Positions 3,547 through 63,081 are shown, counted from the first letter of the stretch. The stretch is DNA of 64,000 nucleotides from Bacteroidota bacterium (GCA_043810345.1 JBDROF010000018.1:97651-161650); one strand, 5' to 3'. Notes: a model not told the origin generated them from the sequence alone. Program-made: numbers and translations.

Positions 3547-3552
3547 ACCCGG

Positions 3553-4923: not shown

Positions 4924-4991
4924 TGATAAGATATAAGATATTAGATGTTAGATATATTGCCAATTGCCAACTGCCAACTGCTAACTGCTAA
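4924..4991. repeat. Intergenic 'morphing' short tandem repeat
   Basis: gataagatataagatattagatgttagatatat is followed by tgccaattgccaactgccaactgctaactgctaa. Each unit differs from its neighbour by 1-2 nt. Confidence 0.85.
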
Positions 4992-5154
4992 TTTTTTTCT
5001 CAGGCACAGCCGGCGCATTTCCGTCATGAGCTCGAGTTTTATGAAATGAACTTTTGCGAAACAAATATACATAATCAACACAACCCTTCCTTTTATCTCA
5101 TTCCGCATAAGTAATCATTAATCACGTTTCGCGTATCTCGAATCCGGCTTCCTT

Positions 5155-19078: not shown

Positions 19079-21481
19079 ATGACAGATAGGATTAAAAAAC
19101 TAAGGGAGCAAACTCTTCAGGCGGTTAACCGCATCAACGCCGAAAGGGCGTTGCTGGTGACAGAATTCTACAAAAGCGGGATCGACAAGGAGGTGTCGAC
19201 GCCTGTGATGCGTGCCATGACATTGTTACACATCCTTCAGCATAAACACATCTGCATCAATGAAGGGGAACTGATCGTCGGGGAGCGGGGGCCGGCGCCC
19301 AAGGCATGTCCCACCTATCCGGAGATCTGCCTGCACTCCCTGGAAGACCTGGAGATCCTCGATTCCAGGAAAAAGGTCTCCTTTCAGGTAGACAAGGAAA
19401 CCCGGAAAGCATATGCCGGTCAAATCATCCCTTTCTGGCAGGGCAAAAGTAACCGCGACCGGATCATGCAGGCCATGGAGCAGGAATGGCTGGATGTATA
19501 CAATGCCGGCGTGTTCACTGAATTTCAGGAGCAACGGGCACCAGGCCATACCGTGGCGGGGGAAAAGATCTACCGGAAGGGGATGCTGGATCTGATACTA
19601 GAGATACGAGATGCAAGATCCGGGATAAAGTGGGAAAGTGAACCGGAAGCCGCTGCAAGGGAGGAAGAGCTGAAGGCGATGGAGATTGCAGCTAATGCCA
19701 TCATCCTGTTTGCGAACAGATGTGCGGATGTACTTGAAGGTCTTGTACCCCTCCCCCAGACCCTCCCAAACAATGGAGAGGAGAATCCAACATCCAGCAT
19801 CCCGCATCCAGGATCTGGCAACGAACTGCTTGCACTGGCCAGGATCTGCCGCAGTGTTCCGGCTCACGCTCCGGAAACTTTCCACGAAGCCCTGCAGCAT
19901 TACTGGTTTATTCACCTGGGCGTGATCACAGAGTTGAATCCATGGGATTCATTCAATCCAGGAAGGCTGGATCAGCATCTCTACCCATTTTATAAACGGG
20001 AAACTGAGGCAGGAACTCTGACGAGAAAGCGTGCTGAAGAACTGCTTCAGAGCTTCTGGATCAAATTCAACAACCATCCGGCCCCACCGAAGGTCGGGGT
20101 CACGGCACTCGAAAGCAATACCTACACCGATTTTTCACTGATCAACCTGGGAGGCGTTCAGGCCGATGGCTCAGATGCGGTAAATGAGCTGACATTCTTG
20201 ATCCTCGACGTCATCGAAGAGATGCGGTTGTTACAACCCAGTTCCATGGTCCAGTTGAGCAGGAAAAATCCAGATAGTCTGATCAAACGTGCCCTTCAGA
20301 TCACCAAAACCGGTTTCGGGCAACCCTCCTACTTCAACACCGATGCGATTGTGCAGGAACTTATGCGACAGGGGAAATCGGCAGAAGATGCAAGAAACGG
20401 AGGAGCAAGTGGTTGTGTGGAGGCTGGTGCATTCGGTACAGAAGCCTACATCCTCTCCGGCTACTTCAACCTGGCTAAGATCCTGGAGATCACACTGCAT
20501 AACGGCTTCGATCCCCAGACCCGGAAACAGATTGGTCCGGCATCCGGTGATCCGGCATCGTTCTCCTCATTTGAAGAACTGAGGGAAGCATACCGGAAGC
20601 AACTGAATCATTTCATCCATATAAAAATCAGGGGGAATAATACCATTCACCGGATATTTGCTGATCAGATGCCCGTACCATTCCTCTCCCTGATCATTGA
20701 TGATTGCATCACCAATGGAAAAGACTACAACGCAGGTGGAGCACGATACAATACCAGCTACATCCAGGGCGTCGGGCTCGGGAGTCTGACCGACTCCCTC
20801 ACCGCACTGAAATACCATGTGTTCGACCGGAAAACCATCTCCATGGCCGGATTTCTGGACGCCCTGGAGAAAAACTTCAATGATTACGATGAATTCCGGG
20901 TGGAATTGATTTACAACACACCCAAATACGGAAACGATGATGATTTTGCCGATGATGAGGCACGACTGGTTTTCGAGATGTTCTTTGAGGCGGTGGATGG
21001 TCAACCCACTTCCATTGGCGGCATCCACCGGATCAACATGCTTCCTACCACTTCCCATCTCTATTTTGGAAGTGTGATTGGTGCCCTGCCCGATGGCAGA
21101 AAAGCCAAACAACCCCTTTCCGAAGGGATATCTCCAGTCCAGGGAGCCGACACGAAAGGCCCCACGACCGTCCTGAATTCTGCCGCCAAAATCGACCATC
21201 TACGCACCGGCGGCACCTTGTTGAACCAGAAGTTCTCTCCTGAATTCTTTGATGGCGAAGAGTCCATAGATAAACTTACAGCTCTGATCCGAAGCTACTT
21301 CCGGATGAACGGACACCATATCCAGTTTAATGTCGTTTCGGCGGAAACCCTGAAAGATGCCCAGAAACATCCCGAGAAATATCGCGATCTGATTGTTCGG
21401 GTAGCAGGATATAGTGATTACTTTAACGATCTGGGAGAAGAGCTGCAGAACGAGATCATACGCAGGACGGAACAAAAGTAA
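19079..21481 (+). CDS. Glycyl-radical enzyme, PFL-like fold, Cys-x-Glu (dehydratase/lyase) class; substrate unassigned
   Basis: 800 aa. N-terminus TDRIKKLREQ..INAERALLVTEFYK, active-site loop GGASGCVEAGAFG, C-terminal glycyl radical motif RDLIVRVAGYSDYFNDL. Confidence 0.9.
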   Translation: MTDRIKKLREQTLQAVNRINAERALLVTEFYKSGIDKEVSTPVMRAMTLLHILQHKHICINEGELIVGERGPAPKACPTYPEICLHSLEDLEILDSRKKVSFQVDKETRKAYAGQIIPFWQGKSNRDRIMQAMEQEWLDVYNAGVFTEFQEQRAPGHTVAGEKIYRKGMLDLILEIRDARSGIKWESEPEAAAREEELKAMEIAANAIILFANRCADVLEGLVPLPQTLPNNGEENPTSSIPHPGSGNELLALARICRSVPAHAPETFHEALQHYWFIHLGVITELNPWDSFNPGRLDQHLYPFYKRETEAGTLTRKRAEELLQSFWIKFNNHPAPPKVGVTALESNTYTDFSLINLGGVQADGSDAVNELTFLILDVIEEMRLLQPSSMVQLSRKNPDSLIKRALQITKTGFGQPSYFNTDAIVQELMRQGKSAEDARNGGASGCVEAGAFGTEAYILSGYFNLAKILEITLHNGFDPQTRKQIGPASGDPASFSSFEELREAYRKQLNHFIHIKIRGNNTIHRIFADQMPVPFLSLIIDDCITNGKDYNAGGARYNTSYIQGVGLGSLTDSLTALKYHVFDRKTISMAGFLDALEKNFNDYDEFRVELIYNTPKYGNDDDFADDEARLVFEMFFEAVDGQPTSIGGIHRINMLPTTSHLYFGSVIGALPDGRKAKQPLSEGISPVQGADTKGPTTVLNSAAKIDHLRTGGTLLNQKFSPEFFDGEESIDKLTALIRSYFRMNGHHIQFNVVSAETLKDAQKHPEKYRDLIVRVAGYSDYFNDLGEELQNEIIRRTEQK
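19748..19820. repeat. Probable in-frame low-complexity repeat inside the GRE CDS
   Basis: cccctcccccagaccctcccaaacaatggagaggag..catccagcatcccgcatccaggatc encodes PLPQTLPNNGEENPTSSIPHPGSG, just upstream of the conserved ..LALARICRSVPAHAPETFHEALQ block. Confidence 0.5.
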
Positions 21482-21557
21482 TTGCCATCATTGCACATCA
21501 TTGCACATCATTGCGCATCATTGCACATTATTGCATATTATTGCGCATGATTGCCAT
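21481..21557. repeat. Tandem repeat, 10-bp unit (ttgcacatca and variants), about 7.5 copies
   Basis: attgccatca ttgcacatca ttgcacatca ttgcgcatca ttgcacatta ttgcatatta ttgcgcatga ttgccat. It starts on the last base of the GRE stop codon. Confidence 0.92.
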
Positions 21558-27709: not shown

Positions 27710-27783
27710 GGCCCCGTAGCTCAACTGAATAGAGTATCTGACTACGGATCAGAAGGCTGGGGGTTTGAATCCCTCCGGGGTCA
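27710..27783 (+). tRNA. tRNA-Arg (anticodon ACG)
   Basis: Hand-folded cloverleaf. Acceptor GGCCCCG/CGGGGTC, D stem GCTC/GAGT, anticodon stem TCTGA/TCAGA with loop CTACGGA (ACG), T stem GGGGG/CCCTC with loop TTTGAAT, discriminator A. No CCA is encoded. Confidence 0.9.
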
Positions 27784-28706: not shown

Positions 28707-29435
28707 ATGAGGCATGTATTAGTGACAGGTGGTTCCAGAGGAATTGGAAGGGCTTGCTGCCTGCGGCTTGCTGATGCAGGGCATTACATCATCATCAACT
28801 ACCTCTTCAACAAGGATGAAGCGGAAAAAACGCTGGAGATGGTTCGTGAAAAAGGGAGTGATGGGGAGTTGCTGAAGTTCGATGTATCCAGCCAGCAGGA
28901 GGTAGAAAAAGCCCTGAATGGATGGATGGAGAAACATGAAGGAGCTTATATATCCATTCTTGTGAACAATGCCGGCATCAGGAAAGATGCCCTGGTTATG
29001 TGGATGAAAGACGACGAATGGCAGGATGTGATCAACACCAACCTGAACGGCTTTCTCTATGTGACCCGAGCCCTGATAAAAGAGATGCTGATCAATAAGT
29101 TCGGCCGGATCATCAATGTGGTTTCGTTATCCGGATTGAAGGGGTTGCCCGGACAAGTCAACTATTCGGCTGCCAAAGCGGGTGTGATCGGAGCTACCAA
29201 GGCGATGGCGCAGGAGGTTGCCAAAAAGAATGTAACGGTCAATGCGGTAGCTCCGGGATTTATCCGCACCGATATGACCAAAGATATGGATGAATCCCAA
29301 CTGAAAGGGATGATTCCGATGGGACGTTTCGGCACCACTGATGAGGTGGCAGGGATCGTTGGTTTTCTTGCTTCTGAAGAGGCCTCTTACATCACAGGAG
29401 CTGTGATAAACGTTAACGGAGGACTATATACCTAA
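28707..29435 (+). CDS. 3-oxoacyl-ACP reductase (SDR, FabG-like ketoreductase)
   Basis: 242 aa. Motifs: VLVTGGSRGIGRA, NNAG, YSAAKAG, PGFIRTDM. Confidence 0.92.
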   Translation: MRHVLVTGGSRGIGRACCLRLADAGHYIIINYLFNKDEAEKTLEMVREKGSDGELLKFDVSSQQEVEKALNGWMEKHEGAYISILVNNAGIRKDALVMWMKDDEWQDVINTNLNGFLYVTRALIKEMLINKFGRIINVVSLSGLKGLPGQVNYSAAKAGVIGATKAMAQEVAKKNVTVNAVAPGFIRTDMTKDMDESQLKGMIPMGRFGTTDEVAGIVGFLASEEASYITGAVINVNGGLYT

Positions 29436-29506
29436 TTACGAATGACGAATTACGAATGACGAATTATATATTAATTTCGCTACCTCGCTACTTCGCTACC
29501 TCGCTA
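29436..29506. repeat. Two adjacent intergenic stutter repeats
   Basis: ttacgaatgacgaattacgaatgacgaatt, then ttcgctacctcgctacttcgctacctcgcta. The first word set recurs at 61631-61653. Confidence 0.9.
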
Positions 29507-35967: not shown

Positions 35968-36115
35968 CAATAAATGCCAAATCACAATTAACAAATTTCA
36001 AATAAATCCCAAATTCTAAATCCCAATGATCTAAAACATATGAGAACTGATGTTTGAAATTTTGAACATTGGAGTTTGGTTGTTATTTGTTATTTGGTGC
36101 TTGATATTTGTTAAT
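35968..36115. repeat. AT-rich imperfect palindrome (about 45-nt arms) separating the ABC ATPase and permease genes
   Basis: The left arm aattaacaaatttcaaataaatcccaaattctaaatcccaatg compares with the reverse complement of the right arm, attaacaaatatcaagcaccaaataacaaataacaaccaaactccaatg. The core ..cccaatg/cattgga.tttgg is shared with 60157-60286. Confidence 0.7.
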
Positions 36116-39954: not shown

Positions 39955-41154
39955 ATGGCCAGGCGGGTTGTGGTAACCGGAACCGGCATCATTTCCAGCC
40001 TTGGCAGGAACCTTCCGGAGACCATCGATTCGATCCTCCACTCCAGATCAGGGATTGGAAAACTTCAACATCTCAATACTCCTCACAAAACAGAGTTCCC
40101 CTTTGCAGAGGTTCCATGGAGCAATGATCAACTGATTGACCTGGCTCAACTAACTGATCTCGTGGGATATTCACGGAACACCCTGCTGGGGGTGATTGCG
40201 GCTCGGGAAGCCTTCAAGCATGCCCGGCTTCCCCATCTTCCACCCCTGAGAACAGGGTTAATCTCTGCTACTACAGTGGGTGGCATGGATAGATGCGAGA
40301 TCTATTACAACGACTTTTTGACCAACGATTCGAAAAACATCTACATCGATGTGTACGATTGTGCCGACAGCACAGAGAAAATTGCTGATACCCTGCAGAT
40401 TCGGGATTATGTAACGACTATTAGCACAGCCTGTTCCTCGGCTGCCAACGCGATTTTACTCGGGGCCAGGATGATCCGCAGTGGTCAGCTTGATCGCGTG
40501 GTTGCCGGAGGCACTGAAGCACTCACCAGCTTTCATGTGAATGGTTTCAATGCGCTTAAGATCCTGGACAAGGTCCCTTGCCGTCCTTTCGATGCCAACC
40601 GGAACGGAATTACCCTGGGTGAAGGGGCTGCCTACCTGGTTCTGGAATCAGAGGAGGCAGCCAGGGAGGGTGACCGGGAGATCTTAGCGGAGTTGACCGG
40701 TTACGGGAACGCATGCGAAGCCTTCCACCAGACTGCCTCATCTCCGGATGGGAAGGGAGCTTTCCTGGCGATGGAGAGGGCTTTGCAGATCAGTGGAACC
40801 GATCAGTCGGAGATCGACTATGTCAACGCACACGGGACAGGGACTGACAACAACGACATTGCTGAAGGAGTTGCCATCGAACGGTTGTTCGGGAAAAGGA
40901 TCCCGAAAGTAAGCTCCACGAAGCCTTTCACAGGTCATATGACCAGCGCAGCCGGATCGGCTGAAGCCATCCTCTCCATCCTCTGTCTCACCCACCGGCT
41001 GATCCTGCCTAACCTGAACTTTAACACCCCCATGCCGGAATTGAACTTTACACCGGAACCAACATTGATACGGGATATCGATGTGAAAACGGTGATGTCC
41101 AATTCCTTTGGATTTGGCGGAAATAATACCACCCTTATTTTCAGGAAAATATGA
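39955..41154 (+). CDS. Beta-ketoacyl-ACP synthase II-type KS (KS-alpha of pair 1)
   Basis: 399 aa. Motifs: ISTACSSAANAILLGARMIRSG, VNAHGTGTDNND, TGHMTSAAGSAEA, SNSFGFGGNNTTLIF. Confidence 0.92.
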   Translation: MARRVVVTGTGIISSLGRNLPETIDSILHSRSGIGKLQHLNTPHKTEFPFAEVPWSNDQLIDLAQLTDLVGYSRNTLLGVIAAREAFKHARLPHLPPLRTGLISATTVGGMDRCEIYYNDFLTNDSKNIYIDVYDCADSTEKIADTLQIRDYVTTISTACSSAANAILLGARMIRSGQLDRVVAGGTEALTSFHVNGFNALKILDKVPCRPFDANRNGITLGEGAAYLVLESEEAAREGDREILAELTGYGNACEAFHQTASSPDGKGAFLAMERALQISGTDQSEIDYVNAHGTGTDNNDIAEGVAIERLFGKRIPKVSSTKPFTGHMTSAAGSAEAILSILCLTHRLILPNLNFNTPMPELNFTPEPTLIRDIDVKTVMSNSFGFGGNNTTLIFRKI

Positions 41155-42248
41155 CCGCATACATCCATGGTATTGGCCTCATCTCTCCCCAGCAGACCAC
41201 GGATCCAGCTCTGTTTCTGCCTGAGGTGATGGAGTATACAGCTGATTTCCTGAAAGCGATTGACCCAAATTATAAAACATACATCCACCCGCTGGCTGCC
41301 CGCCGGATGAGCCGGCTCATCAAGATGGGGATCACATCTGCTCTAATCGCCCTGCAAGATGCACGAATACTCCCCTCCCTTCTTGGGGAGGGTCCGGGGG
41401 AGGGGTCGCAGGTGGGGTCCATCATAACCGGCACTGGCCTAGGATCTGTTGAAGACACCGAAAAAATCCTGACCGGCATGACCGCCGGTGAACAATTGAT
41501 GAACCCGACGCCCTTTATCCAGTCCACCTATAACACCATCAGTTCACAGATCGCTATCTCCATCAAATGTCACAATTACAATTCTACTTACGTACACCGC
41601 TCATTCTCTTTTGAAAGTGCACTTCAGGATGCCCTGTTACAGTTTGCTGAAGGAGCCGTCTTGACAGCCCTTGTTGGGGGCATCGATGAAATGACCGCTA
41701 ACCACCTTCAGATCACCCGGCGGGCCGGGCACTGGAAGATGAACCCGGTGAATAACCTGCAGCTACTCTCGACCAAAACACCCGGTGCACTTGCCGGAGA
41801 AGGCGCTGCCTTTTTCCTGCTGGGGAACCAATCCACAGCCTCTACTTATGCCACTCTCAGGGATGTGAAAACCCTTTACAGGCCGGAAAAGCAGACATAT
41901 CTGGAAGAGGTAATTCACGATTATCTTTCCGCTAACGATTTGGATATAAATCAGTTGGATATCGTAATTCTGGGTTACAATGGGGATATTCAATTTGATG
42001 CCGTGTATGACCAGCTAGGATCAGGAATCTTCCGGGAAACTCAACAGGTGTGGTATAAACACCTCTGTGGAGAGTATTATACTTCTACTGGTTTCGCCCT
42101 CTGGTTGGGAGCCAATATCCTGAAACATCAGCTGGTTCCGGCCATCGTCAAATTCAACAACGTGAATTCCGGCCCTTTAAAGCATATCCTGATCTATAAC
42201 CAATACCGAAATATTAACCATTCCATGATTCTCCTTAGCAGAAGATAA
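41151..42248 (+). CDS. Chain-length-factor-like KS homologue lacking the catalytic Cys (partner of pair 1)
   Basis: 365 aa. ATGA overlap with the KS gene. IHGIGLISPQ.., IITGTGLG, FIQSTYNTISSQIAISIK sits where the KS has ISTACSS. Confidence 0.8.
   Translation: MTAYIHGIGLISPQQTTDPALFLPEVMEYTADFLKAIDPNYKTYIHPLAARRMSRLIKMGITSALIALQDARILPSLLGEGPGEGSQVGSIITGTGLGSVEDTEKILTGMTAGEQLMNPTPFIQSTYNTISSQIAISIKCHNYNSTYVHRSFSFESALQDALLQFAEGAVLTALVGGIDEMTANHLQITRRAGHWKMNPVNNLQLLSTKTPGALAGEGAAFFLLGNQSTASTYATLRDVKTLYRPEKQTYLEEVIHDYLSANDLDINQLDIVILGYNGDIQFDAVYDQLGSGIFRETQQVWYKHLCGEYYTSTGFALWLGANILKHQLVPAIVKFNNVNSGPLKHILIYNQYRNINHSMILLSRR
41371..41420. repeat. GC-rich hairpin repeat lying in frame inside CLF-like gene 1
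   Basis: tcccctcccttcttggggagggtccgggggaggggtcgcaggtggggtcc encodes PSLLGEGPGEGSQVGS, immediately before the conserved IITGTGLG. Confidence 0.85.
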
Positions 42249-42366
42249 CCAGCAACCTTCACCTATTCACGGACTATCCAATACCCTTAACACGATCCCA
42301 CTGAGTCCTGCGCTCTGGGCCCTGTGCTCTTTCTCTTTGTCCTCCGTGGTTGAACAAATTTTCTGT

Positions 42367-42374
42367 TAACTTTG
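42367..42374 (+). promoter_or_regulatory. Candidate internal -7 box (TAnnTTTG) upstream of KS pair 2
   Basis: taactttg lies 24 nt upstream of the ATG at 42399, in the only sizeable (150-nt) gap of this gene run. Confidence 0.4.
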
Positions 42375-42398
42375 CCTGCACGAATTTGTCTGAACTGA

Positions 42399-43613
42399 AT
42401 GTCGAAACGCATCTTTATTACCGGGATCGGGATCATCTCTGCCATTGGGAACAGCATACACGAAGTCCTCTATTCACTGGAAACCGGCAAAACCGGCATC
42501 GGGGAGATCACTCTCTTTCCTACCCTTCACCAGGGGTCAATTCCCATGGCCGAAGTGAAACTCTCCAACGCCCAGCTCCTCAACCTGGCAGGCCAACACG
42601 AAAATGGTAATTTTACGAGGACTGCCCTGCTGGGGATGGTTGCTGCGAAAGAGGCGTTAGAATCAGCGGGAATCAGAGATGTTACTGCCCTTAGAACCGG
42701 TCTTCTCTCTGCCACTACGGTGGGTGGAATGGACCGTAGCGAAGGCTTTTACAAGGAATTCCTTGAAGATCCTGCAAAAGGGCGGTTGAAAGATGTGATC
42801 AATCACGATTGTGGCGACAGCACTGAACGTATTGCTTCTTACCTGGGGATCAATCACCTGATCTCAACCATCAGTACAGCTTGTTCCTCTTCCGCTAACT
42901 CCATCATGTTTGGTGCCGACCTGATCCGCAGCGGAAAACTTGACCGGGTGATCGCCGGAGGAACCGACTCAGTTACAAAGTTCACCCTCAACGGATTCAA
43001 TACACTGATGATCCTGGATAAAAGAGGATGCCATCCGTTTGATGAACACAGGGCGGGTTTAACACTTGGTGAAGGGGCGGCTTTTGTCGTGCTTGAACCC
43101 GAAGAAATTGTAAAAAGAGAGGGGAAACAGCCCCTGGCTGAACTTACCGGGTATGGCAATGCCAACGATGCATACCATCAGACGGCTAGCTCACCCGATG
43201 GAAAAGGTGCCTTTCTGGCCATGACCATAGCCCTGGAAATGAGTAAGCTGAGCCCATCTGAACTGGATTATATCAACGCTCATGGAACCGGAACTGAGAA
43301 TAATGATTTGTCTGAAGGGATTGCCCTGGAGCGGATCTTTGACCCGGTTCCCCCTTTCAGCTCTACGAAAACCTATACCGGCCATACGCTTGGGGCTGCA
43401 GGAGCAGTGGAAGCTGTGATTTCGATCCTTTCGATCTGCCACGGGATGATCTTTCCGAACCTCAATTGGTCAACGCCCATGAAAGAGTTAACGATCCAAC
43501 CTGTAACTCAACTAATAAAGAAGAAGAATATCCGGCATGTTCTCTCCAACTCCTTTGGTTTCGGGGGAAATAACTCCACCCTGATCCTCTCTCAACCTCC
43601 TCAATCTGTATAA
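42399..43613 (+). CDS. Beta-ketoacyl-ACP synthase II-type KS (KS-alpha of pair 2; paralogue of 39955-41154)
   Basis: 404 aa. Motifs: ISTACSSSANSIMFGADLIRSG, INAHGTGTENND, TGHTLGAAGAVEA, SNSFGFGGNNSTLIL. Confidence 0.92.
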   Translation: MSKRIFITGIGIISAIGNSIHEVLYSLETGKTGIGEITLFPTLHQGSIPMAEVKLSNAQLLNLAGQHENGNFTRTALLGMVAAKEALESAGIRDVTALRTGLLSATTVGGMDRSEGFYKEFLEDPAKGRLKDVINHDCGDSTERIASYLGINHLISTISTACSSSANSIMFGADLIRSGKLDRVIAGGTDSVTKFTLNGFNTLMILDKRGCHPFDEHRAGLTLGEGAAFVVLEPEEIVKREGKQPLAELTGYGNANDAYHQTASSPDGKGAFLAMTIALEMSKLSPSELDYINAHGTGTENNDLSEGIALERIFDPVPPFSSTKTYTGHTLGAAGAVEAVISILSICHGMIFPNLNWSTPMKELTIQPVTQLIKKKNIRHVLSNSFGFGGNNSTLILSQPPQSV

Positions 43614-43616
43614 TCT

Positions 43617-44717
43617 GTGAAATTTGTGGTAAAACAAAAAGCATATATAAACAGCGTCGGATGCATCTCTCCTCAGCACACAATCGATAACCGGCAGTTT
43701 CTTACAGAACCGGTTTCGGTAGAAAGTACGCGCCTGAAAGCCATTGACCTGAATTATAAGGAGTTTGTCCCTCCTGAGATGGTACGTAGGATGGGACGGA
43801 TCATTAAAATGGGAGTAGCGGCAGCGAAGATCTGCCTGGAATACCCCTCCCCTTCAGGGGAGGGATCGGGGGTGGGGTCTCCGGATGCCATTATCACTGG
43901 AACCGGTCTCGGTTGCATGGAAGATACAGAGAAATTCCTGGGAAATATGATTAAAAACAACGAAGAGTTTCTCACTCCCACCTCTTTTATCCAATCCACA
44001 CATAATACAGTAAGTGCCCAGATCGCTTTGCTGATCAAGTGTCATGGCTATAACTTCACCTACGTTCACCGGGGATTCTCCTTTGAAACTGCCATCCTCG
44101 ACAGTCTGGTTCGGTTGGAAAATAACCGGATAAAAAACGTGCTTTTTGGTGCTGCCGATGAACTTACAGAAAACTCTTTTCAGATCCAAAACCGGATGGG
44201 TTTCTGGCGCAGACAACCTATTGATAATCTGAAACTTCTTGAGCAACAGGAGCGGGGAACCATCGCAGGTGAAGGGGCTGCATTTTTCCTGCTGGAGAAA
44301 AAGAAAAAGAGCAACTCTTACGCTGTTCTCAACGACGTAGAGATGCTCTATCGTCCTACCACCACCCATGAGATCTCTCATTATATTCGGCTTTTCCTTG
44401 AAAGAAACGGACTGGAAAAGAACAATATAGATCTTCTATTGCTTGGGCGGAACGGGGATATCAGATTCGATCCAATTTATGATGATATAGTGGCAGCCGT
44501 TTTCCCGGAAGTGGCCTCCTGCGGCTTCAAACAGCTATGCGGGGAGTACATGACCGCTTCTTCATTCGGAGTATGGCTGGCTTCCAAAATCTTGAAAGAA
44601 CAGCGGGTTCCTGATCTACTCTTGATCCAGAAAAAACCCTCCGCCCTGAAACATATTCTTTTGTATAACCACTACCGGGGGATCAATCACACCCTGATCC
44701 TCATGAGCCAGGCATAG
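43617..44717 (+). CDS. Chain-length-factor-like KS homologue lacking the catalytic Cys (partner of pair 2; paralogue of 41151-42248)
   Basis: 366 aa with a GTG start. Collinear with 41151-42248 (..RRMGRIIKMG.., IITGTGLG.MEDTEKFL, FIQSTHNTVSAQIALLIKCHGYN, LCGEYMTASSFG). Confidence 0.8.
   Translation: MKFVVKQKAYINSVGCISPQHTIDNRQFLTEPVSVESTRLKAIDLNYKEFVPPEMVRRMGRIIKMGVAAAKICLEYPSPSGEGSGVGSPDAIITGTGLGCMEDTEKFLGNMIKNNEEFLTPTSFIQSTHNTVSAQIALLIKCHGYNFTYVHRGFSFETAILDSLVRLENNRIKNVLFGAADELTENSFQIQNRMGFWRRQPIDNLKLLEQQERGTIAGEGAAFFLLEKKKKSNSYAVLNDVEMLYRPTTTHEISHYIRLFLERNGLEKNNIDLLLLGRNGDIRFDPIYDDIVAAVFPEVASCGFKQLCGEYMTASSFGVWLASKILKEQRVPDLLLIQKKPSALKHILLYNHYRGINHTLILMSQA
43843..43880. repeat. GC-rich hairpin repeat lying in frame inside CLF-like gene 2, at the same alignment position as in gene 1
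   Basis: acccctccccttcaggggagggatcgggggtggggtct has an 8-bp perfect stem (ccctcccc/ggggaggg). It encodes PSPSGEGSGVGS before IITGTGLG. Confidence 0.85.
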
Positions 44718-46146: not shown

Positions 46147-46852
46147 CGTCTTTATTCTCTTCCTACTTACCGGATGTCAGCCCATAAAACCTCGGCATCT
46201 GGTCCCCGTTTCTGATAACAAGTCTACTGAAACCTCTTTCCCAACTGCTCACTGCCAAGTGCCAACTCTCTTCTCCTCCTCCACCTTTGAAAAAGCCCTT
46301 TTTAAAGCCACCATGGATATCCGGGAGCATCATCTGACCGGATTGATGTTTGTTAAAAAGGTCCTGGATCCGGGATCCGGGATCCGGGATCTTTCCACCG
46401 GTACAGCATATTCTTCTGTTGATGCTGGTGTGAAATACCGGATTGTTTTCAGCAATGAGTTTGGGATGACCTATTTTGACCTGGAGATCGGATCTGATTC
46501 TTTGCATGTCCATTATTGCTTTGAACCTTTGAATAAAAAAGCACTCTGGAAGATACTGGAGACCGATTTCAGGTTGTTACTCACCACTGAAGAGGTATCG
46601 GGTTACATGAAATCCTATATCCAGGATAAAACCAATTACCTGGCATGTCGACAAAAACAGGGAAATATCGTACGATGGGATTTGTACACTTGTGAAGGGG
46701 ACACACTGGTTGAAGTACGTGGTAAATCAAACCTGGCCGATCAGGCTCATATTGCCTTCAACGGATATCAGCAGGGATTCCCGTCACGAATAATCATCTT
46801 AAATCCCTTTATCAAACTGAAACTTTCCATATCTTTACTCTCCATTAATTGA
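46124..46852 (+). CDS. Lipoprotein of unknown function (possibly a LolB-like partner)
   Basis: 242 aa from ATG 46124. Lipobox FLLTGC. It overlaps the LolA-like gene by 23 nt. Confidence 0.7.
   Translation: MRSFIFASVFILFLLTGCQPIKPRHLVPVSDNKSTETSFPTAHCQVPTLFSSSTFEKALFKATMDIREHHLTGLMFVKKVLDPGSGIRDLSTGTAYSSVDAGVKYRIVFSNEFGMTYFDLEIGSDSLHVHYCFEPLNKKALWKILETDFRLLLTTEEVSGYMKSYIQDKTNYLACRQKQGNIVRWDLYTCEGDTLVEVRGKSNLADQAHIAFNGYQQGFPSRIIILNPFIKLKLSISLLSIN
46366..46391. repeat. In-frame heptamer tandem repeat (ggatccg x3.7) inside the lipoprotein CDS
   Basis: ggatccgggatccgggatccgggatc encodes DPGSGIRD. Confidence 0.85.
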
Positions 46853-49150: not shown

Positions 49151-50350
49151 TTGGCTTTACGTAAACATACAACCCCTGCCACTTCAAATCCCGCTTCGCG
49201 GATCCCGAATCCCGCATCCGGCATCCGGCATCCGGTATCTGTAAAGGTTGTCGGAAGCGGCTCATTTCTTCCTGGGGCAGCCATTTTACCCGACCAGGTC
49301 GATTATTTTCTGGGGGAATTGATGGAAGCGCCGGAAAAGATCCGGAAATGGATGAAACGAATCCGGATCCTGATGAAGGAGTTGCTGGAGGCAGAATATT
49401 ATCATTTTGCCTTGGATCCCATTACACGACAATTTACGGAGGATAATGTAACAATGTCGGTGAAAGCAGCCCGGGAAGCCATCACGGATGCCGGAATGAA
49501 ACCGGAGGAGATCGAACTGATCGTTTACGGCAGCGCACACCAGGACCAGATGCCAACTGCTTCCGTAAGGATCCAAGAAGCGCTGGGGATTGAACGATGC
49601 GGGGAGCTCTCAGTGCATGCGAATTGCACCTCTGCCTACAAAGCGCTTCTGCTCGCCCACGAACTTCTTCAATCAGGCCGGTACCGGAACGCCCTCGTGG
49701 TCTCGTCGAGCATGTCATCGTCGGAGCTGGTAGCAGAATACTACAATCAATCCCTGGTTAAAAAAGAGGAGCTGTTTTTACGTTATTTCCTCAGCGACGG
49801 CGCTTCGGCCCTGGTGTTGAAAGCAGAACCTGAACGGAGTGGCAATGGGTTATACCTGGATTACACCTATATGGAATCAACCGGAGGGAAAAAACCGTCG
49901 GCCATGGGAAACAGACGCCCGGCTTACTGGATGAATCCGAAAGAGGAGTATGAGAAAGGTTGTCACCACCTGGCCCAGATGTTCCAGGAGGAGCTTCGGG
50001 CCAACTTCCACGAAGCTGACGGCTCGGTCTTCCTGAATGGCTTGAAACGGATGCTGGCCCTGCATCCGGTCGATCCCCGGCATATCCGTTTTTTCCAGGT
50101 GAACTTCCCGTCAAAACATATTTCGGAACTGGTGATGGATGAATGCAGTGAACTGGGGATCGACCGGAACACGCTCTACTCGAAGATGGCCACGATGGGC
50201 TATATCGGTCCGCCCATGGCCTTTCTCTGTCTCGACCGGATCCGGAAAGAAGAGCAATTGAACACGGGTGATATAATCCTTAGCTTTGTAACTGAGGTCA
50301 GTAAATTCATGCAGGCGGGATATGTGCTGAGGTACGAAGTCAGACGTTAG
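49151..50350 (+). CDS. KAS III (FabH)-like thiolase-fold condensing enzyme, divergent active-site context
   Basis: 399 aa. FabH-like N-terminus VKVVGSGSFLPG, Cys context VHANCTSAYKALLLAHELLQSG. The usual HQAN and GNTSAAS blocks are replaced by FQVNFPSKH and MGYIGPPM. The only in-frame start is TTG 49151, which makes the repeat at 49186-49240 part of the CDS. Confidence 0.75.
   Translation: MALRKHTTPATSNPASRIPNPASGIRHPVSVKVVGSGSFLPGAAILPDQVDYFLGELMEAPEKIRKWMKRIRILMKELLEAEYYHFALDPITRQFTEDNVTMSVKAAREAITDAGMKPEEIELIVYGSAHQDQMPTASVRIQEALGIERCGELSVHANCTSAYKALLLAHELLQSGRYRNALVVSSSMSSSELVAEYYNQSLVKKEELFLRYFLSDGASALVLKAEPERSGNGLYLDYTYMESTGGKKPSAMGNRRPAYWMNPKEEYEKGCHHLAQMFQEELRANFHEADGSVFLNGLKRMLALHPVDPRHIRFFQVNFPSKHISELVMDECSELGIDRNTLYSKMATMGYIGPPMAFLCLDRIRKEEQLNTGDIILSFVTEVSKFMQAGYVLRYEVRR
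49186..49240. repeat. Stutter repeat forming the N-terminal extension of the KAS III-like CDS
   Basis: aaatcccgcttcgcggatcccgaatcccgcatccggcatccggcatccggtatc encodes NPASRIPNPASGIRHPVS. Confidence 0.85.
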
Positions 50351-50436
50351 AATTTAGAACGCAAGTTAAAAGTTAGAACGACGAACTGTTTTCCAAATTT
50401 CCTAATGACTTAATGACCATTGACTAATGACTAACC
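50346..50436. repeat. Intergenic stutter repeats that contain the start codon of rSAM #2
   Basis: gttagaatttagaacgcaagttaaaagttagaacgacgaac and ctaatgacttaatgaccattgactaatgactaac. Confidence 0.8.
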
Positions 50437-52004
50437 CTAAACGATATACGCTGTTTTTACTGAGTCCCCGCCAGCGCTTTATCAATTATCCAGCGCATAT
50501 TTACCTGGCGAAGATGTTCGGAAAGCAGCGGTTTATGGTGCCATTGGCACTTCCTACGGTGGCGGCTCTTACTCCTGACCATTACGACCTCCATATTTAT
50601 GACGAGGAGATTGAGGAGATCCCGGTAGACATCCTGCCAGATATCGTGGGCATCACTACCCTGGCTGCCACTGTCAACCGGGCTTTTGAACTGGGAGACC
50701 ACTTCCGGAAACTGGGTGCCATCGTGATCTATGGTGGACCTTACGCCTCCTTTCAGGTTGACAAAGCACTGGAACATGGTGATGCAGTAGTGGTTGGAGA
50801 GGCCGAAGAACAATGGGAAAAGCTGCTGGAGGATTTTGAGCAAAATAATTTGCAACAGGTCTATGCGGCAAACTCCTATGTCGACTACCTTACCCAGAAA
50901 CCGCCCCGCTGGGATCTGGTCAATATGAAACGGATCTTCCAGGTAGCGATACAGGTCTCCCGGGGGTGTCCCTTCAACTGCGATTTCTGCATAGTAACCA
51001 AAATCTTCGGACGGAGGATGCGATACCGCGAAATCGATAATGTGGTGGAGGAAATCAACGCAGCTCCTTCGAAGTACTTCTTCTTCGTAGACGATAACCT
51101 CACCATCAATAAACGCTATGCCAGAGAGTTGATGGAGGCAATAAAACCGTTGAAGATCTCCTGGGGTTGCATGTGCAGCATCGATGTGGCGAAAGATGAC
51201 GAACTGCTCAAAGCGATGGCGGATGCGGGATGTTTCAATATCCTCATCGGGTTTGAGTCCCTCAACCCGGATAGCCTGGATGCCTCCAACAAGCATCATA
51301 ACCGGCGTGGGACCATCTATGAGGAGGCCATTCAGAAGATCCATTCCCATGGGATCCATATTAACGCCAGCTTTGTGGTGGGTTTCGACAACGACGACCT
51401 GGAGGAATTCGACCGGATCTACGACTTTACATTGAAACACAGCCTTCCCAATGTCAACCTTCACCTATTGAACGCACCACCGGGATCGGAGATCTATAAG
51501 CGATACCAGGAGGAGGGCCGGCTACTGAATTGTAATCCTGAACTTGGGGTGGGCCATTTCCCTACCATCCACTATATGAATATGTCGCAGATTGAACTGT
51601 TCAATAAATATATGACCACTATCGAACGTTTCTACTCCTTTGACACCGTTCTACGGAAAGCGAAAAACCTGTTCAGCAACGGAAACTTCACAAGATCCGG
51701 TGGCGATATTGCAGCATGGCTGAAAGTTCGTCTCACCTGGATCACGGTTAAGGCATTTCTTATTACAAGAGATACCAGGAAACGGGAGCTCTTTTTTTAT
51801 ATCATCGGCCTGATCCGCTCCAACAAAATTGCGATCGACAAAGGCCTGGGATTCCTGCTAACCATGCTGGGATATCACCGGCATATTGAAGCGCATAAAA
51901 GAAACATGGAAGATTACCGGAACATAGTGAGGGAACAGGACCGGGGTGCGTGGAAAGATCACTCCTCCCCAACCCCTCCCCAAAAAGGGAGGGGAAACCA
52001 GTAA
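50427..52004 (+). CDS. B12-binding-domain radical SAM enzyme (#2), long C-terminal extension
   Basis: 525 aa. B12-type N-terminus (LALPTVAALTP..DIVGITTLAATVNRAFELGDHFRKLGAIVIYGGPYAS..VVVGEAE). Radical SAM motif VSRGCPFNCDFCIV. The C-terminal about 150 aa may be DUF4070-like (recollection only). Confidence 0.88.
   Translation: MTNPKRYTLFLLSPRQRFINYPAHIYLAKMFGKQRFMVPLALPTVAALTPDHYDLHIYDEEIEEIPVDILPDIVGITTLAATVNRAFELGDHFRKLGAIVIYGGPYASFQVDKALEHGDAVVVGEAEEQWEKLLEDFEQNNLQQVYAANSYVDYLTQKPPRWDLVNMKRIFQVAIQVSRGCPFNCDFCIVTKIFGRRMRYREIDNVVEEINAAPSKYFFFVDDNLTINKRYARELMEAIKPLKISWGCMCSIDVAKDDELLKAMADAGCFNILIGFESLNPDSLDASNKHHNRRGTIYEEAIQKIHSHGIHINASFVVGFDNDDLEEFDRIYDFTLKHSLPNVNLHLLNAPPGSEIYKRYQEEGRLLNCNPELGVGHFPTIHYMNMSQIELFNKYMTTIERFYSFDTVLRKAKNLFSNGNFTRSGGDIAAWLKVRLTWITVKAFLITRDTRKRELFFYIIGLIRSNKIAIDKGLGFLLTMLGYHRHIEAHKRNMEDYRNIVREQDRGAWKDHSSPTPPQKGRGNQ
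51961..51998. repeat. GC hairpin repeat forming the C-terminal tail of rSAM #2
   Basis: actcctccccaacccctccccaaaaagggaggggaaac has an 8-bp stem (cccctccc/gggagggg). It encodes ..SSPTPPQKGRGNQ*. Confidence 0.85.
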
Positions 52005-52009
52005 AAGGA

Positions 52010-53098
52010 ATGATCAACATCCATCATCAGGCATCAGGCAGCATTCATCCGGTATCAAGCATCCAGACTGTTGGCGTCATCGGTGAAGGAAAAATGGGGT
52101 CCAGCATCTTCTATTCCCTGCTCCATTCGCCCTATTCCCTGCGCTGGATCGGAAGCCCGGATGCCGATGTAGAAAAACTTCAGCAGCACCTGGAAAAAAA
52201 AATCCACCGCCATCTTAAGAGCGGCATCGTGGGTCAGGATGAGCATGATCGCCTGCTTCTGAGAACGATCATCTCCTCCGATGTGAGTCATACCGCAAAT
52301 TGCGACCTGGTGATCGAAGCGATCCCGGAAGAGTTAACGTTGAAGCGACAGCTTTTTGCGGATTTGGACAGGATCACTAAATCATCCTGTATACTGGCCA
52401 CAAACTCATCCTCTTTCAATCCGTCTCAGCTCTTTCTGGATTCGAAAAGAGACGAACGGATTATCGGAATGCACTACTTTTTCCCCGTACCGTTAAAGGA
52501 GACCGTGGAGCTGATTTTTCCTGAGAAAACATCCACCAAAGTGCGTTCAACTACTGAAGCCTTTTTACGTCAGACAGGTAAACAAATACTTCTTCTGAAT
52601 GAATCTAATAGCTTTATTTTAAATAAATTATTCCTTGATATTCAGAATGAAACTTATCGAATTGTTGAACAGGGAATGGCTACAGTCAAGCAGATTGACA
52701 CGTTGATCAAAGAGCAACTTTTTCCTGTTGGAGTGTTTGATTTCATGGATAACGTTGGGATTGAAACCATGTTGGCGGCGGTCAGAAATTATACATCGGA
52801 CTACCCGCACAAAGATTATTACCAAAACCTGATCAACAAACTCCAGGCGCTTGTGGATGCGGGTAAGTTTGGGCTGAAATCAGGAGAGGGTTTTTTTCGT
52901 TATACGGAAGGGAAGATGAGCGATTCATCGTCACCTGAACCCCTCCGGCCAGAAGTTGCCCGTGAGATCACCAACCACCTCAGGTTTACCTATCTGAATG
53001 CTGCCAAGCGGTTCACCATGCAGTCGGGATGTACGATTGATGAGATGAACCAGGCGATCAGGGAGTACTTAGGCCTCGAAAAGGGTCCCTTTGAATAA
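52010..53098 (+). CDS. 3-hydroxyacyl-CoA dehydrogenase (NAD-binding, HBD/FadB-type)
   Basis: 362 aa from ATG 52010. Motifs: VGVIGEGKMGSSI (GxGxxG), DLVIEAIPEEL..KRQLF, ILATNSSS, IGMHYFFPVP. The first ~18 codons derive from the stutter repeat at 52013-52066. Confidence 0.88.
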   Translation: MINIHHQASGSIHPVSSIQTVGVIGEGKMGSSIFYSLLHSPYSLRWIGSPDADVEKLQQHLEKKIHRHLKSGIVGQDEHDRLLLRTIISSDVSHTANCDLVIEAIPEELTLKRQLFADLDRITKSSCILATNSSSFNPSQLFLDSKRDERIIGMHYFFPVPLKETVELIFPEKTSTKVRSTTEAFLRQTGKQILLLNESNSFILNKLFLDIQNETYRIVEQGMATVKQIDTLIKEQLFPVGVFDFMDNVGIETMLAAVRNYTSDYPHKDYYQNLINKLQALVDAGKFGLKSGEGFFRYTEGKMSDSSSPEPLRPEVAREITNHLRFTYLNAAKRFTMQSGCTIDEMNQAIREYLGLEKGPFE

Positions 53099-58651: not shown

Positions 58652-58746
58652 TTGCGTATCATTGCCATCATTTCCAAGATTGCACATGAATTGATTTTTT
58701 ACGTCTTATATCCTTCGTCCTTCGTCGCTCCTCTTTCTTCCTTCCT
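58652..58746. repeat. Stutter repeats between DUF1573 and rSAM #3, extending into the 3' end of the rSAM #3 CDS
   Basis: ttgcgtatcattgccatcatttccaagattgcacatgaattg uses the same words as the 21481-21557 tandem repeat. tccttcgtccttcgtcgctcctctttcttccttcc encodes (minus strand) the C-terminal tail ..RKEERGATKDEG... Confidence 0.8.
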
Positions 58747-61627: not shown

Positions 61628-61630
61628 CAA

Positions 61631-61653
61631 TTACGAATTACGAATGACGAATT
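61631..61653. repeat. Stutter repeat, same words as 29436-29465
   Basis: ttacgaattacgaatgacgaatt lies directly upstream of the rSAM #4 start. Confidence 0.85.
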
Positions 61654-61726
61654 TTAAAATGTGATGCAGAAAAGATAATCAAAGGTACATATTTAATAGA
61701 CTTAAGGCTGCCTTGTGTGGAATTGC

Positions 61727-61734
61727 TATTTTTG
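61727..61734 (+). promoter_or_regulatory. Candidate -7 box (TAnnTTTG) upstream of the GT2-DUF2062 gene
   Basis: tatttttg lies 51 nt upstream of the ATG at 61786. Confidence 0.4.
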
Positions 61735-61785
61735 CTTTGTCAACCTCGTTCCCGGATGCCGGATAGCAATTACATAAGCCAGAAG

Positions 61786-63081
61786 ATGAAATCGTTGAGG
61801 TGTTGCGTGATCATTCCAACCTACAACAATGCCGGAACGCTGGAGAAGGTGATCCGAGGAGTACAGGAATATTCTGACGACATCATCGTGGTGAACGACG
61901 GGAGCACGGATGAAACACCGGAGATCTTAAACAAGTTGGCAGCTGGCAGTTGGCACTTGGCAGAAGATGGCACGGCACCACGGCACCACGGCACCACTTC
62001 ACCAGTCACCAGTCACCAGTCACCAGTCACCATAATCACCACTTCCACCACATCCACCACATTCACCATTATCACCATCCCCCGCAACACCGGCAAAGGC
62101 TTCGCGCTCCGGCAAGGATTCAACTATGCTATTCAGCAGGGATACCGCTATGCTATCACGATCGACAGCGATGGGCAACATTTTCCGGAAGACATCCCGA
62201 AATTCATTGAAAAAACAGAAGAGGATCCTGATGCCATCGTGATTGGCGCACGGGACATGAAACAGGAGGATGTACCAGGAACCAGCAGTTTCGGACATAA
62301 ATTCTCCATTTTCTGGTTCCGGGTTGAGACCGGTCTGAGGGTCCCTGATGTACAATCGGGGTATCGCCTTTACCCGCTTAAGCGGATCCAAACCATCCGC
62401 CAATTTTACTGTTCCAGGTACGAATTTGAGGTAGAGATCCTTGTCCGGTTAGCCTGGCGGGGGGTGTCTATCCTATCGGTACCGGTGAAGATCTGGTATG
62501 GAGCAGCCGCGGAGCGTGTTTCACATTTCCGGAAAGGGAGGGATTTTGCTCGGACCAGTCTGCTCAATAGCATTCTGGTCTTTGCAGCCCTTCTCTGGGT
62601 CAGACCGTTCCATTTTACCAAAGGTCTTCGGAAAAAAAGCTTCAGGGAGATCATCCGGGAGTATTTCATCAACAGTGAGGATACCAACGCAAAATTGGCC
62701 TGGTCTGTGGTGCTTGGCATCTTCATCGGGGTATCTCCCGTCTGGGGATATCAGATGATTGTTGCTGTAGCACTGGCACATTTTCTCCGATTGCACAAAT
62801 TTGTCGCACTGGTAGCCTCCAACATCAGCATCCCTCCCCTGATCCCCATTATCCTCTTTTGCAGTTATATCACAGGAGGGTTTGTGCTTGGAGCTGAGAA
62901 CACCCATCTGGAATACTCTTCAGGCATTAATTTCCAGTGGATCAAGCAACACCTGATCCAATACATCGTGGGAAGTTTTGTTTTTGGTGCCGTGCTGGCA
63001 CCTGTGACCGGATTCATCACCTATGTTTTGCTGGTCACCTTCAGAAAGAATGTACAACTAAAAGAGATGGAAAAGAACTAA
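61786..63081 (+). CDS. Family 2 glycosyltransferase fused to a C-terminal DUF2062 membrane domain
   Basis: 431 aa from ATG 61786. GT2 motifs: CCVIIPTYNNAGTLEKVI, VVNDGSTDETPEIL, NTGKGFALRQG, TIDSDGQH. The C-terminal AWSVVLGIFIGVSPVWGYQMIVAVALAHFLRLHKFVALVASNISIPP is DUF2062-like. The track start at 61717 is an upstream GTG. Confidence 0.88.
   Translation: MKSLRCCVIIPTYNNAGTLEKVIRGVQEYSDDIIVVNDGSTDETPEILNKLAAGSWHLAEDGTAPRHHGTTSPVTSHQSPVTIITTSTTSTTFTIITIPRNTGKGFALRQGFNYAIQQGYRYAITIDSDGQHFPEDIPKFIEKTEEDPDAIVIGARDMKQEDVPGTSSFGHKFSIFWFRVETGLRVPDVQSGYRLYPLKRIQTIRQFYCSRYEFEVEILVRLAWRGVSILSVPVKIWYGAAAERVSHFRKGRDFARTSLLNSILVFAALLWVRPFHFTKGLRKKSFREIIREYFINSEDTNAKLAWSVVLGIFIGVSPVWGYQMIVAVALAHFLRLHKFVALVASNISIPPLIPIILFCSYITGGFVLGAENTHLEYSSGINFQWIKQHLIQYIVGSFVFGAVLAPVTGFITYVLLVTFRKNVQLKEMEKN
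61936..62069. repeat. Long morphing tandem repeat (about 134 nt) lying in frame inside the GT2 catalytic domain
   Basis: ttggcagctggcagttggcacttggcag..ggcacggcaccacggcaccacggcaccac..ttcaccagtcaccagtcaccagtcaccagtcaccat..aatcaccacttccaccacatccaccacattcaccattatcaccatc encodes LAAGSWHLAEDGTAPRHHGTTSPVTSHQSPVTIITTSTTSTTFTIITI, between DGSTD and NTGKG. Confidence 0.9.

Follow-up and report, generated by a model that had tools for sequence, protein, structure and literature searches.

Two paralogous genes for ketosynthase-like chain-length factors (CLFs) carry an in-frame insert at the same loop in a 64,000-nucleotide stretch of Bacteroidota DNA, which was analysed as a whole and is called the window here. 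The inserts are copies of a short, dispersed G/C-rich palindromic repeat, and the present analysis concerns this repeat and the way in which it came to be translated within the two proteins. CLF1 (41151..42248, + strand, 365 amino acids) and CLF2 (43617..44717, + strand, 366 amino acids) are 49% identical, and only the N-terminal domain PF00109 of Pfam was matched in each. A full ketosynthase (KS) gene is located upstream of each CLF, homologues are named chain length factor by their source annotations, and the features expected of KS/CLF members (a KS/thiolase fold, a paired full KS and the N-terminal KS domain only) were all found. The catalytic cysteine appears to be lost, as judged by eye only. 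The gene set is that of an aryl-polyene/flexirubin-type cluster, the neighbours being ApeP-like, ApeI-like, LolA, ABC transporter, acyl carrier protein, thioesterase and enoyl-CoA hydratase genes and two B12-radical-SAM genes.

The sequences of the inserts, 41371-41420 (tcccctcccttcttggggagggtccgggggaggggtcgcaggtggggtcc) and 43843-43880 (acccctccccttcaggggagggatcgggggtggggtct), are as an earlier note on this DNA had described them, and their translations, PSLLGEGPGEGSQVGS and PSPSGEGSGVGS respectively, are correct in the open reading frames (ORFs) of CLF1 and CLF2. The note had placed both inserts directly before the residues IITGTGLG, which holds for the CLF1 insert (copy A), while in CLF2 (copy B) the residues PDA stand between. 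G/C stems of 7-8 bp are present as reported: that of copy A has 7 bp (CCCTCCC/GGGAGGG, loop TTCTTG) and that of copy B 8 bp (CCCTCCCC/GGGGAGGG, loop TTCA). The pattern CCCTCCC-N3-8-GGGAGGG matches hairpins at 41373-41392, 43845-43864 and 51974-51993 and nowhere else in the window, that is, three observed against 0.00 expected and zero in 100 shuffles, and perfect G/C stems of at least 7 bp with loops of 3-8 nt were confined to the same three sites in the 64 kb. The third site (copy C) supplies the last ~14 codons of a B12-radical-SAM ORF (50427..52004), whose C-terminal tail reads SSPTPPQKGRGNQ before the stop codon, in agreement with the note; its orientation is opposite to that of copies A and B.

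Copies were then delimited by an nhmmer profile that had been built solely from copies in unrelated genomes of other phyla. This foreign profile recovers exactly four copies in the window (E = 5e-8, 1e-7, 4e-5 and 1e-4), together with both CLF copies of L001, the nearest sampled relative, by which the idea of a repeated palindromic element translated in frame is borne out. Copy A occupies 41370..41407 on the + strand (E=5e-8) and is composed of CTCCCCTCCC, the loop TTCTT, GGGGAGGG, TCC, GGGGGAGGGG and TC, translated LPSLLGEGPGEGS. Copy B, also on the + strand at 43844..43878 (E=1e-7), is composed of CCCCTCCCC, TTCA, GGGGAGGG, ATC, GGGGGTGGGG and T, and is translated PSPSGEGSGVGS. Copy C was matched on the minus strand at 51962..51994 (E=4e-5), where its layout is the same as that of A and B. 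The note had counted three copies, which are confirmed, and had overlooked the fourth, the degenerate copy D (19747..19783, minus strand, E=1.3e-4), which is read in frame on the + strand as VPLPQTLPNNGEE within the ORF of a glycyl-radical enzyme (19079..21481, 800 amino acids). All four copies are inside ORFs and three of them (A, B and D) are internal and in frame; about 91% of the window consists of long open frames.

Alignment of copies gave a consensus of ~38 nt, CTCCCCTCCCC-N4-6-GGGGAGGGG-YY-GGGGG(A/T)GGGGT. When one genome per species was scanned for GGGAGGGNNNGGGGGNGGGGT, at least 120 loci were obtained, and the matches listed include Chloroflexota, Nostoc and other cyanobacteria, Gemmataceae, Desulfonema, Thiomargarita, Sphingomonas, Hyphomicrobium, Prevotella, Hymenobacter, Saprospiraceae and others. 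The phyla represented among them (Chloroflexota, cyanobacteria, Planctomycetota, Proteobacteria and Bacteroidota) contradict the notion of an element specific to Bacteroidota. An exact CCCTCCC arm lies no more than 60 nt upstream in 80 of the 140 listed matches, and many others carry variants of the type CCCTCTCC. It can be observed that positions outside the search pattern are also constrained: the spacer positions are pyrimidines in 120/136 and 126/136 copies, a flanking G, not fixed by the pattern, precedes the first tract in 116/136 copies and follows it in 129/136, and the centre of the last tract is A in 50, T in 81, C in 4 and G in 1 (A/T in 131/136 cross-phylum copies). Beyond the element itself no conserved flank was detected, the composition before CTCCCC and beyond GGGGT (CTCCCCTCCCC...GGGGT) being near random in the 136 copies.

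The layout of the repeat is that of a purine-motif intrastrand triplex, in which the C-rich arm pairs with the first G-rich arm and the second G-rich arm mirrors the first. Under a class II criterion, which demands seven or more C-G*G or T-A*(A/T) triads, allows no more than one mismatch and sets the first loop at 3-6 nt and the second as short, copies A (triads 7/8), B (8/9) and C (7/8) are the sole motifs with at least 7 triads on either strand of the window; copy D falls short (5/6) and has no stable hairpin. A G-quadruplex may equally be formed by the G-rich strand: four G-tracts of at least 3 with short loops on one strand are found in A (tract lengths 4,3,5,4,4), B (4,3,5,4) and D (3,3,5,4), and copy C has three tracts only. 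RNA hairpins of the elements are predicted to fold at -18 to -30 kcal/mol, with z of -0.4 to -1.4. A special hairpin stability was rejected, with z of -0.4 to -1.7 for A, B and C and a positive z for D against dinucleotide shuffles. Because folding is no better than in such shuffles, the stems are to be regarded as a by-product of the C-run/G-run composition. Membership of a known RNA family was also rejected, as an Rfam search of the window and 10 loci at gathering thresholds gave tRNA only, and Rfam matches by E-value at the elements were at chance level (RAGATH-10, 21 bits versus a gathering value of 41; Pab91, 18 versus 71). The sole gathering-level match in the window is a tRNA gene at 27710-27783.

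An AlphaFold (AF2) model of CLF2, with a mean predicted local distance difference test (pLDDT) of 88.3 and a predicted template modelling score (pTM) of 0.90, places copy B in a coil (residues 75-90) between a helix (61-74) and a strand (91-96), with pLDDT <50 at residues 82-84. The insert therefore maps to a loop, as a structural check proposed in the note had asked. The modelled fold matches the ishigamide and actinorhodin KS/CLF structures and FabF at template modelling (TM) scores of 0.73-0.78. A search of the PDB with a single CLF sequence gave no match and a profile was required; by profile, the closest solved homologue by sequence has a loop 6 residues longer at the insert position. On this model the insert loop is best read as a permissive surface coil in which many lengths and sequences would be tolerated. 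Inserts of the type of the Rickettsia palindromic elements (RPEs) generally occur in tolerant surface regions.

Homologues without the insert are common. The short loop DAGCQ(M/I)PDA is present in 93/121 CLF1 and 69/120 CLF2 homologues (the CLF2 set being the best 120 homologues and the CLF1 set 121 sequences), in which the segment from RRM to TGLG has 36 residues; in CLF2 the loop reads CL-ADAGCQIPDAIITGTGLG. These include the outgroups of each paralogue, so that the alternative of the earlier note in which the element was present before the duplication is rejected; the inserts post-date the CLF duplication. An equivalent Gly/Ser/Pro loop encoded by non-repetitive DNA, which the note had named as the sign of an ordinary linker, was found in no orthologue, each having either the short loop or an intact or decayed element.

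Among the relatives, designated by locus numbers with identity to the window CLF2 in brackets, filled, empty and decayed sites are mixed. In L001 (84%) both CLF1 and CLF2 are filled at the codon position and in the frame of the window, and its CLF2 copy is orthologous to copy B. In L003 (74%) both sites are empty. The CLF1 site is empty and the CLF2 insert decayed in L006 (66%), while CLF2 is empty in L128 and L129, whose CLF1 genes have an intact and a decayed copy, respectively. L004 (69%) has a long form of ~85 nt at both sites, and L005 (65%) has a CLF1 insert without recognisable element sequence and a composite form in CLF2. Only one of the two genes is on the contig in L131 (CLF1, a long-loop form) and in L130 (69%; CLF2, with a G/C hairpin insert of 33 nt that is unrelated). 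The window and L001 have L131 as their sister, and the long-loop form of L131 has the flanks of copy A; copy A is for this reason a loop-deleted derivative of such a form. The trailing gcaggtggggtcc of copy A, which had been taken for a further repeat unit, aligns with an ordinary flank of L131, TCGCTGGTTGATGCC (SLVDA), and is a mutated flank. Many further CLF1 homologues have inserts of +11/12 residues, ranging from intact (LPSPSGEGPGVG) to unrecognisable (TLSSTHWKETPMSL), and more distant CLF2 homologues have loops of +7/+9 residues that are known at the protein level only. The same loop is filled, then, in several lineages of both paralogues, in different forms and in both orientations. In a paralogue-rooted tree of KS+CLF modules, of the neighbour-joining kind only and with bootstrap values not displayed, filled and empty states interleave in both paralogues. 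For one CLF1 homologue from a database, P0150 (280 amino acids), the called start is the methionine that directly precedes LDAIITG, on the downstream border of the insert site, and this truncation is apparently an annotation artefact caused by the element.

The rate of change of the inserts was assessed between the window and L001, whose third codon positions are 68-70% identical gene-wide. The nucleotide identity of the insert is 0.84 in CLF2 (gene 0.84) and 0.67 in CLF1 (gene 0.82), and an extra conservation of the insert was accordingly rejected, its rate of change being that of the gene. Decayed CLF1 inserts keep their length of +11/12 residues despite unrelated sequence. Together, the gene-wide rate and the decay at kept length point to a tolerated rather than a selected linker, contrary to the suggestion that the element had been selected.

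Further evidence of dispersal is provided by copies of other form and in other genes. The CLF2 insert of L004 is the reverse complement of its CLF1 insert (69/84 identical ungapped, score 96 versus 18 in the same orientation). As proof of independent insertion this opposite orientation is weakened, since the element's own inverted arms could recombine and flip it. The ~85-nt long form is common to both L004 sites, and its termini are also found in an insert of the glycyl-radical gene of L127, which shares its termini with the L004 CLF2 insert and its left junction with copy D. The glycyl-radical loop has 42 amino acids in 51/121 orthologues versus 57 in the window, and it is occupied by related P-rich/G-rich inserts or by long tandem repeats in other lineages. 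Of seven orthologous junctions between the radical-SAM and dehydrogenase genes, that of the window alone has copy C, which is missing from the other six. The 23-nt loop of the long form (TTGCGAGCGnnAGCGAAGCAAC), found in the loop at L004:7842-7865 and in that of the L131 CLF1 insert (gene 3316-4449), is half of another widespread palindromic repeat, GTCA-TTGCGAGCGnnAGCGAAGCAA-TCCAG...CTGGATTGCTTCGTCGC..CTCCTCGCAATGAC, which occurs at no fewer than 120 metagenome loci (L132-L251) on contigs of 32-68% GC. Since this core belongs to the other repeat, the long form consists of one small repeat nested in the loop of another. Among the matches listed from a metagenome scan with the 23-nt core, there were no more copies of the element and no new insertion sites.

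Elsewhere, an open frame of at least 600 nt is present at 51% of motif copies versus 85% of random positions. In-frame copies with Pfam domains on both sides were nevertheless identified in other phyla, in PurL, nSTAND1, UvrD-like, IcmF-like and HI0933-like genes; the hosts include a cyanobacterial caspase-nSTAND1-WD40 protein, a UvrD-like helicase of Desulfonema, an IcmF-like mutase and an HI0933-like flavoprotein. In PurL (L012:5305-5406) one C-arm is followed by three tandem G-rich tails with a 30-nt period, read GEGSGVGSCPGEGSGVGSCPGEGPGVG, with LPSPFGEGSGVGS as in the CLFs, which demonstrates that the G-rich tail can expand in tandem in frame. The IcmF-like fused mutase (L091:1151-5125, minus strand), which has the motif in its linker, also contains a DUF559/restriction-endonuclease-like domain between the B12-binding and MeaB domains.

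The DNA of the empty loop is itself repetitive. It reads GATGCGG GATGCCA GATGCCG GATGCC in the empty CLF1 of L003 and GATGCCG GATACCG GATGCCG GATAAG in the empty CLF2 of L128, so that the empty site is a quasi-heptamer microsatellite, (GATGCCN)x4, dictated for the most part by the residues DAGCQMPDA. In P0169 the loop shows a tandem DAGxGMx expansion. Near the other window copies, an array of GGATGCN type on the minus strand (19785..19815; period 7 and 4.4 copies by Tandem Repeats Finder, TRF) adjoins copy D in the same variable glycyl-radical loop, and a degenerate array of GATGCCT type on the minus strand (52025..52063; TRF and a GATGCNN scan) lies ~20-30 nt from copy C and encodes an N-terminal extension of a 3-hydroxyacyl-CoA dehydrogenase gene. 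The latter is older than copy C, because orthologous arrays are present in L003 and L004. Over 128,000 strand positions, no more than five loci reached a score of at least 13/15 for GATGCNN x3. Three are true arrays; of these, two lie beside copies C and D, with the same orientation relative to the copy in each case. A general link between the motif and period-7 arrays was rejected across phyla (0.8-1.6% versus 0.9-1.8% at random positions), and the association holds locally only, for copies C and D and the CLF site.

Several known systems resemble the element. The closest is BoxC/PIT/TMECO of E. coli and further Proteobacteria, CCCTCNCCC-N3-6-GGGNGAGGG-N3-GGGNGAGGG (Holder et al. 2015, PMC4666352), with which it shares a 9-nt C-rich arm, a loop of 3-6 nt, a complementary G-rich arm, a loop of ~3 nt and a mirror arm with an A/T centre, as well as multiple dispersed copies, sometimes in inverted pairs, the lack of a known transposase and local sequence instability. 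For TMECO, neither promoter nor terminator activity was seen, a link with local instability is described, and no association with transposons, phages or plasmids was found (PMC4666352). The core differs, however, being CCCCTCCCC/GGGGAGGGG/GGGG(A/T)GGGG here and CCCTCNCCC/GGGNGAGGG in TMECO, and the spread extends well beyond Proteobacteria. In K-12, TMECO is reported to be intergenic in every case (PMC4666352), whereas all four window copies are in ORFs, three of them internal and in frame. By comparison of the two consensuses, the element has the architecture of TMECO and belongs to a different sequence family.

The analogy with RPEs that the earlier note had drawn is apt for behaviour, in that a palindromic repeat is placed in frame in conserved protein genes and read through as an extra peptide, and filled and empty orthologous sites are found in CLF1, CLF2 and the glycyl-radical enzyme. 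It is not apt for structure, for which BoxC/PIT/TMECO (PMC4666352) is the closer relative. RPEs have ~105-146 bp (Delihas 2011 review, PMC3184786), are restricted to Rickettsia and are unrelated in sequence, in contrast to an element of 33-38 nt (~85 nt in the long form) with C/G runs that occurs in many phyla. REP/REPIN sequences mobilised with RAYT (PMC3116915, PMC3733652) are likewise short G/C-rich hairpins with many dispersed copies, sometimes in inverted pairs, but no GTAG/CGTC tag or other flank is conserved in the 136 copies, and repetitive extragenic palindromic (REP) sequences are by definition extragenic. Pneumococcal BOX/SPRITE and the miniature inverted-repeat transposable elements (MITEs) of Bordetella and cyanobacteria are fused to or inserted in ORFs (review, PMC3184786), as copy C is a gene-end extension and copies A, B and D are internal coding inserts; these are different families, none of which is described as triplex-type or as recurring at one loop of two paralogues. 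MITE-like features are restricted to the long forms with inverted outer arms, and comparison of filled with empty sites reveals no visible duplication and the replacement of a few bases. Small repeats that enter genes in frame are already known from RPEs, pneumococcal repeats and cyanobacterial MITEs (PMC3184786), and triplex-type repeats are known as well (PMC4666352). In the literature searched, no description was found of this sequence family with its wide spread, of its read-through in conserved enzymes, or of the repeated filling of one loop in two paralogues, with a possible overlap with the small dispersed repeats of cyanobacteria of Elhai et al. 2008, and a search for the motif string gave nothing specific.

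The inserts are probably best explained as a tolerated dispersed repeat that entered a permissive, indel-prone and fragile loop after the CLF duplication. Copies would have come into the helix-to-strand loop DAGCQ(M/I)PDA of both paralogues, with a filling that would date to the ancestor common to the window and L001. With no stop codons in the frame used, the element would be read through as a surface coil rich in Pro, Ser, Gly and Glu, and since the loop is tolerant of lengths and sequences, the protein probably still works and the insert would drift. The loop DNA is also fragile: besides the element, which comes in several forms and in either orientation, relatives carry a second repeat family and 21-nt expansions there. 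The identity of the repeat, its dispersal, the filled and empty sites, the position in the loop and the rate of change are shown by the data; we infer that the insert is neutral and that each paralogue was hit separately. Several points weigh against this explanation. No transposase, target-site duplication or conserved flank was found at the examined sites, so that we infer mobility from the distribution only. The filled site of L128 is no clean insertion, 37 nt replacing GCCA. The tree pattern needs either repeated gains or the exact restoration of DAGCQMPDA. For TMECO, the isolated G-rich strand forms a triplex in vitro, with no triplex signal in the presence of the duplex, and footprinting in vivo did not support a stable triplex (PMC4666352). 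Finally, the source genome was covered by the 64-kb window only, to which all copy counts refer.

For the recurrence at one loop three readings remain, namely survivor bias, a true hotspot and exchange between the paralogues. Under survivor bias, insertions persist only where the protein tolerates them, and about 91% of the window is in long open frames. Less probable than the tolerated repeat, although a serious contender, is a true hotspot, in which the element or a copying repair prefers loop DNA resembling (GATGCCN)n and hits it repeatedly and independently. As a claim of the earlier note, such a hotspot fits better than an origin before the duplication or selection, and is not proven. It is consistent with the loop holding short, long-loop and reverse forms (forward in P0022, P0123 and P0125, reverse in P0006), and with all profile matches at E<0.05 in 17-21 kb of L001, L004 and L128 being at CLF loops. 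Each of the four window copies is within or next to an array of GATGCNN type, the relative orientation being the same for all; the array close to copy C predates it, and amino-acid changes in the CLF2 of L128 sharpen the heptamer repeat. These points are offset by the small sample of four copies, by the lack of a cross-phylum association with period-7 arrays, and by the richness of the window in such arrays (at least 14, with many units), by which arrays and elements may just share the few tolerant places. A bolder version appears doubtful: a triplex- or quadruplex-capable element of ~38 nt, near-identical across distant phyla, would be actively copied, would prefer heptamer-repeat-like DNA such as (GATGCCN)n, would enter the same loop of two paralogues repeatedly in either orientation and always in frame, and could carry a ubiquitous mini-repeat in its loop. 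If true, very small mobile DNA of this kind would form a class that spans phyla and remodels the loops of proteins.

Gene conversion, by which an insert in one paralogue was copied to the other through short patches between DAG...PDAIITGTGLG blocks and empty sites were copied back, is unlikely. It would account for the same codon position and frame (LPSP..GEG..GVG) in both paralogues, for the same sub-form within a genome (a short loop at each site of the window and of L001, and the long form of ~85 nt at each L004 site), and for empty sites nested among filled ones that have the exact outgroup-like DAGCQMPDA, beyond rebuilding by simple deletion. Against it, the inverted insert of L004 needs an extra inversion in place, the flanking identity between paralogues is short and imperfect, and mixed filled and empty states are common. 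Ongoing homogenisation is further opposed by the CLF2 copies of the window and L001, which share the TTCA loop with few differences, while the two paralogue copies of L001 differ in loop orientation (TGAA versus TTCA). Retention for a function, either an mRNA hairpin or RNA quadruplex that paces CLF translation or a flexible loop that tunes the KS-CLF complex, is very improbable. Stems of both inserts are intact in two genomes between which ~30% of third codon positions differ, the few differences between the CLF2 copies affect the end of the stem, the spacer or the A/T centre, and the G-rich strand is the sense strand of the mRNA for A and B. However, most orthologues are without the insert, decay has left unrelated sequence in many filled alleles, change is no slower overall, folding is no better than in shuffles, the same element is found in unrelated genes and elsewhere mostly outside long open reading frames, and PIT/TMECO is without promoter or terminator activity (PMC4666352). 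The least credible account, to the point of being nearly dismissed, is that the element was in a single ancestral CLF and was kept in both copies. Loop and reading frame are the same in the two paralogues, as this account would have it, but identity between the paralogues is 49% and the family has both of them throughout, homologues of 70-79% identity and the outgroups of each paralogue are without the insert, and a match to a cross-phylum consensus at E~1e-7 would be unexpected after such divergence at the observed rate of drift.

With respect to its meaning, repeats of BoxC/TMECO layout were reported as intergenic in K-12, and here elements of this type are translated within conserved enzymes of at least five phyla, so that they are a source of variation in protein loops and also of errors in annotation such as that of P0150. 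With its filled, empty, decayed and inverted alleles, the 9-residue loop of the two paralogues, which is filled repeatedly, is a small natural system in which the copying and removal of tiny repeats can be studied. When aryl-polyene/flexirubin-type clusters are mined, the Pro/Ser/Gly stretch should not be taken for a functional linker.

Tandem arrays are frequent in the window in general. At least 14 of period 7, with many different units, and several of period 8 were counted, many at the starts or ends of genes, and those listed are located at 4926-4993, 29434-29506, 36004-36113, 46362-46391, 49187-49239, 50402-50434, 52025-52063, 58711-58744 and 61629-62077. The orthologous junctions of relatives have related units, GAATTAC/GAATGAC at the radical-SAM tail and GCATCCG at the dehydrogenase start, and such arrays create variable N- and C-terminal extensions. 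The cleanest GATGCCG array (15/15; 49187-49239, minus strand) is at the start of a KAS-III-like ORF (49151..50350) and is followed by GGGATTCGGGATCCGCGAAGCGGGATTT. A motif of GCGGATCC/CCGCG type also occurs in the radical-SAM tail of L001 and in the CLF2 insert of L130, and may be a third small repeat family of this lineage. A 10-nt array, ATTGCACATC x7.5 (or of period 30), extends over 21481-21554 and begins with the final base of the glycyl-radical enzyme gene's stop codon. In L001 (15881-17983), a cassette of a helix-turn-helix regulator, an N6/N4 methyltransferase and a BsobI-like endonuclease is located between the enoyl-CoA hydratase and KAS-III genes, where the window is without it.

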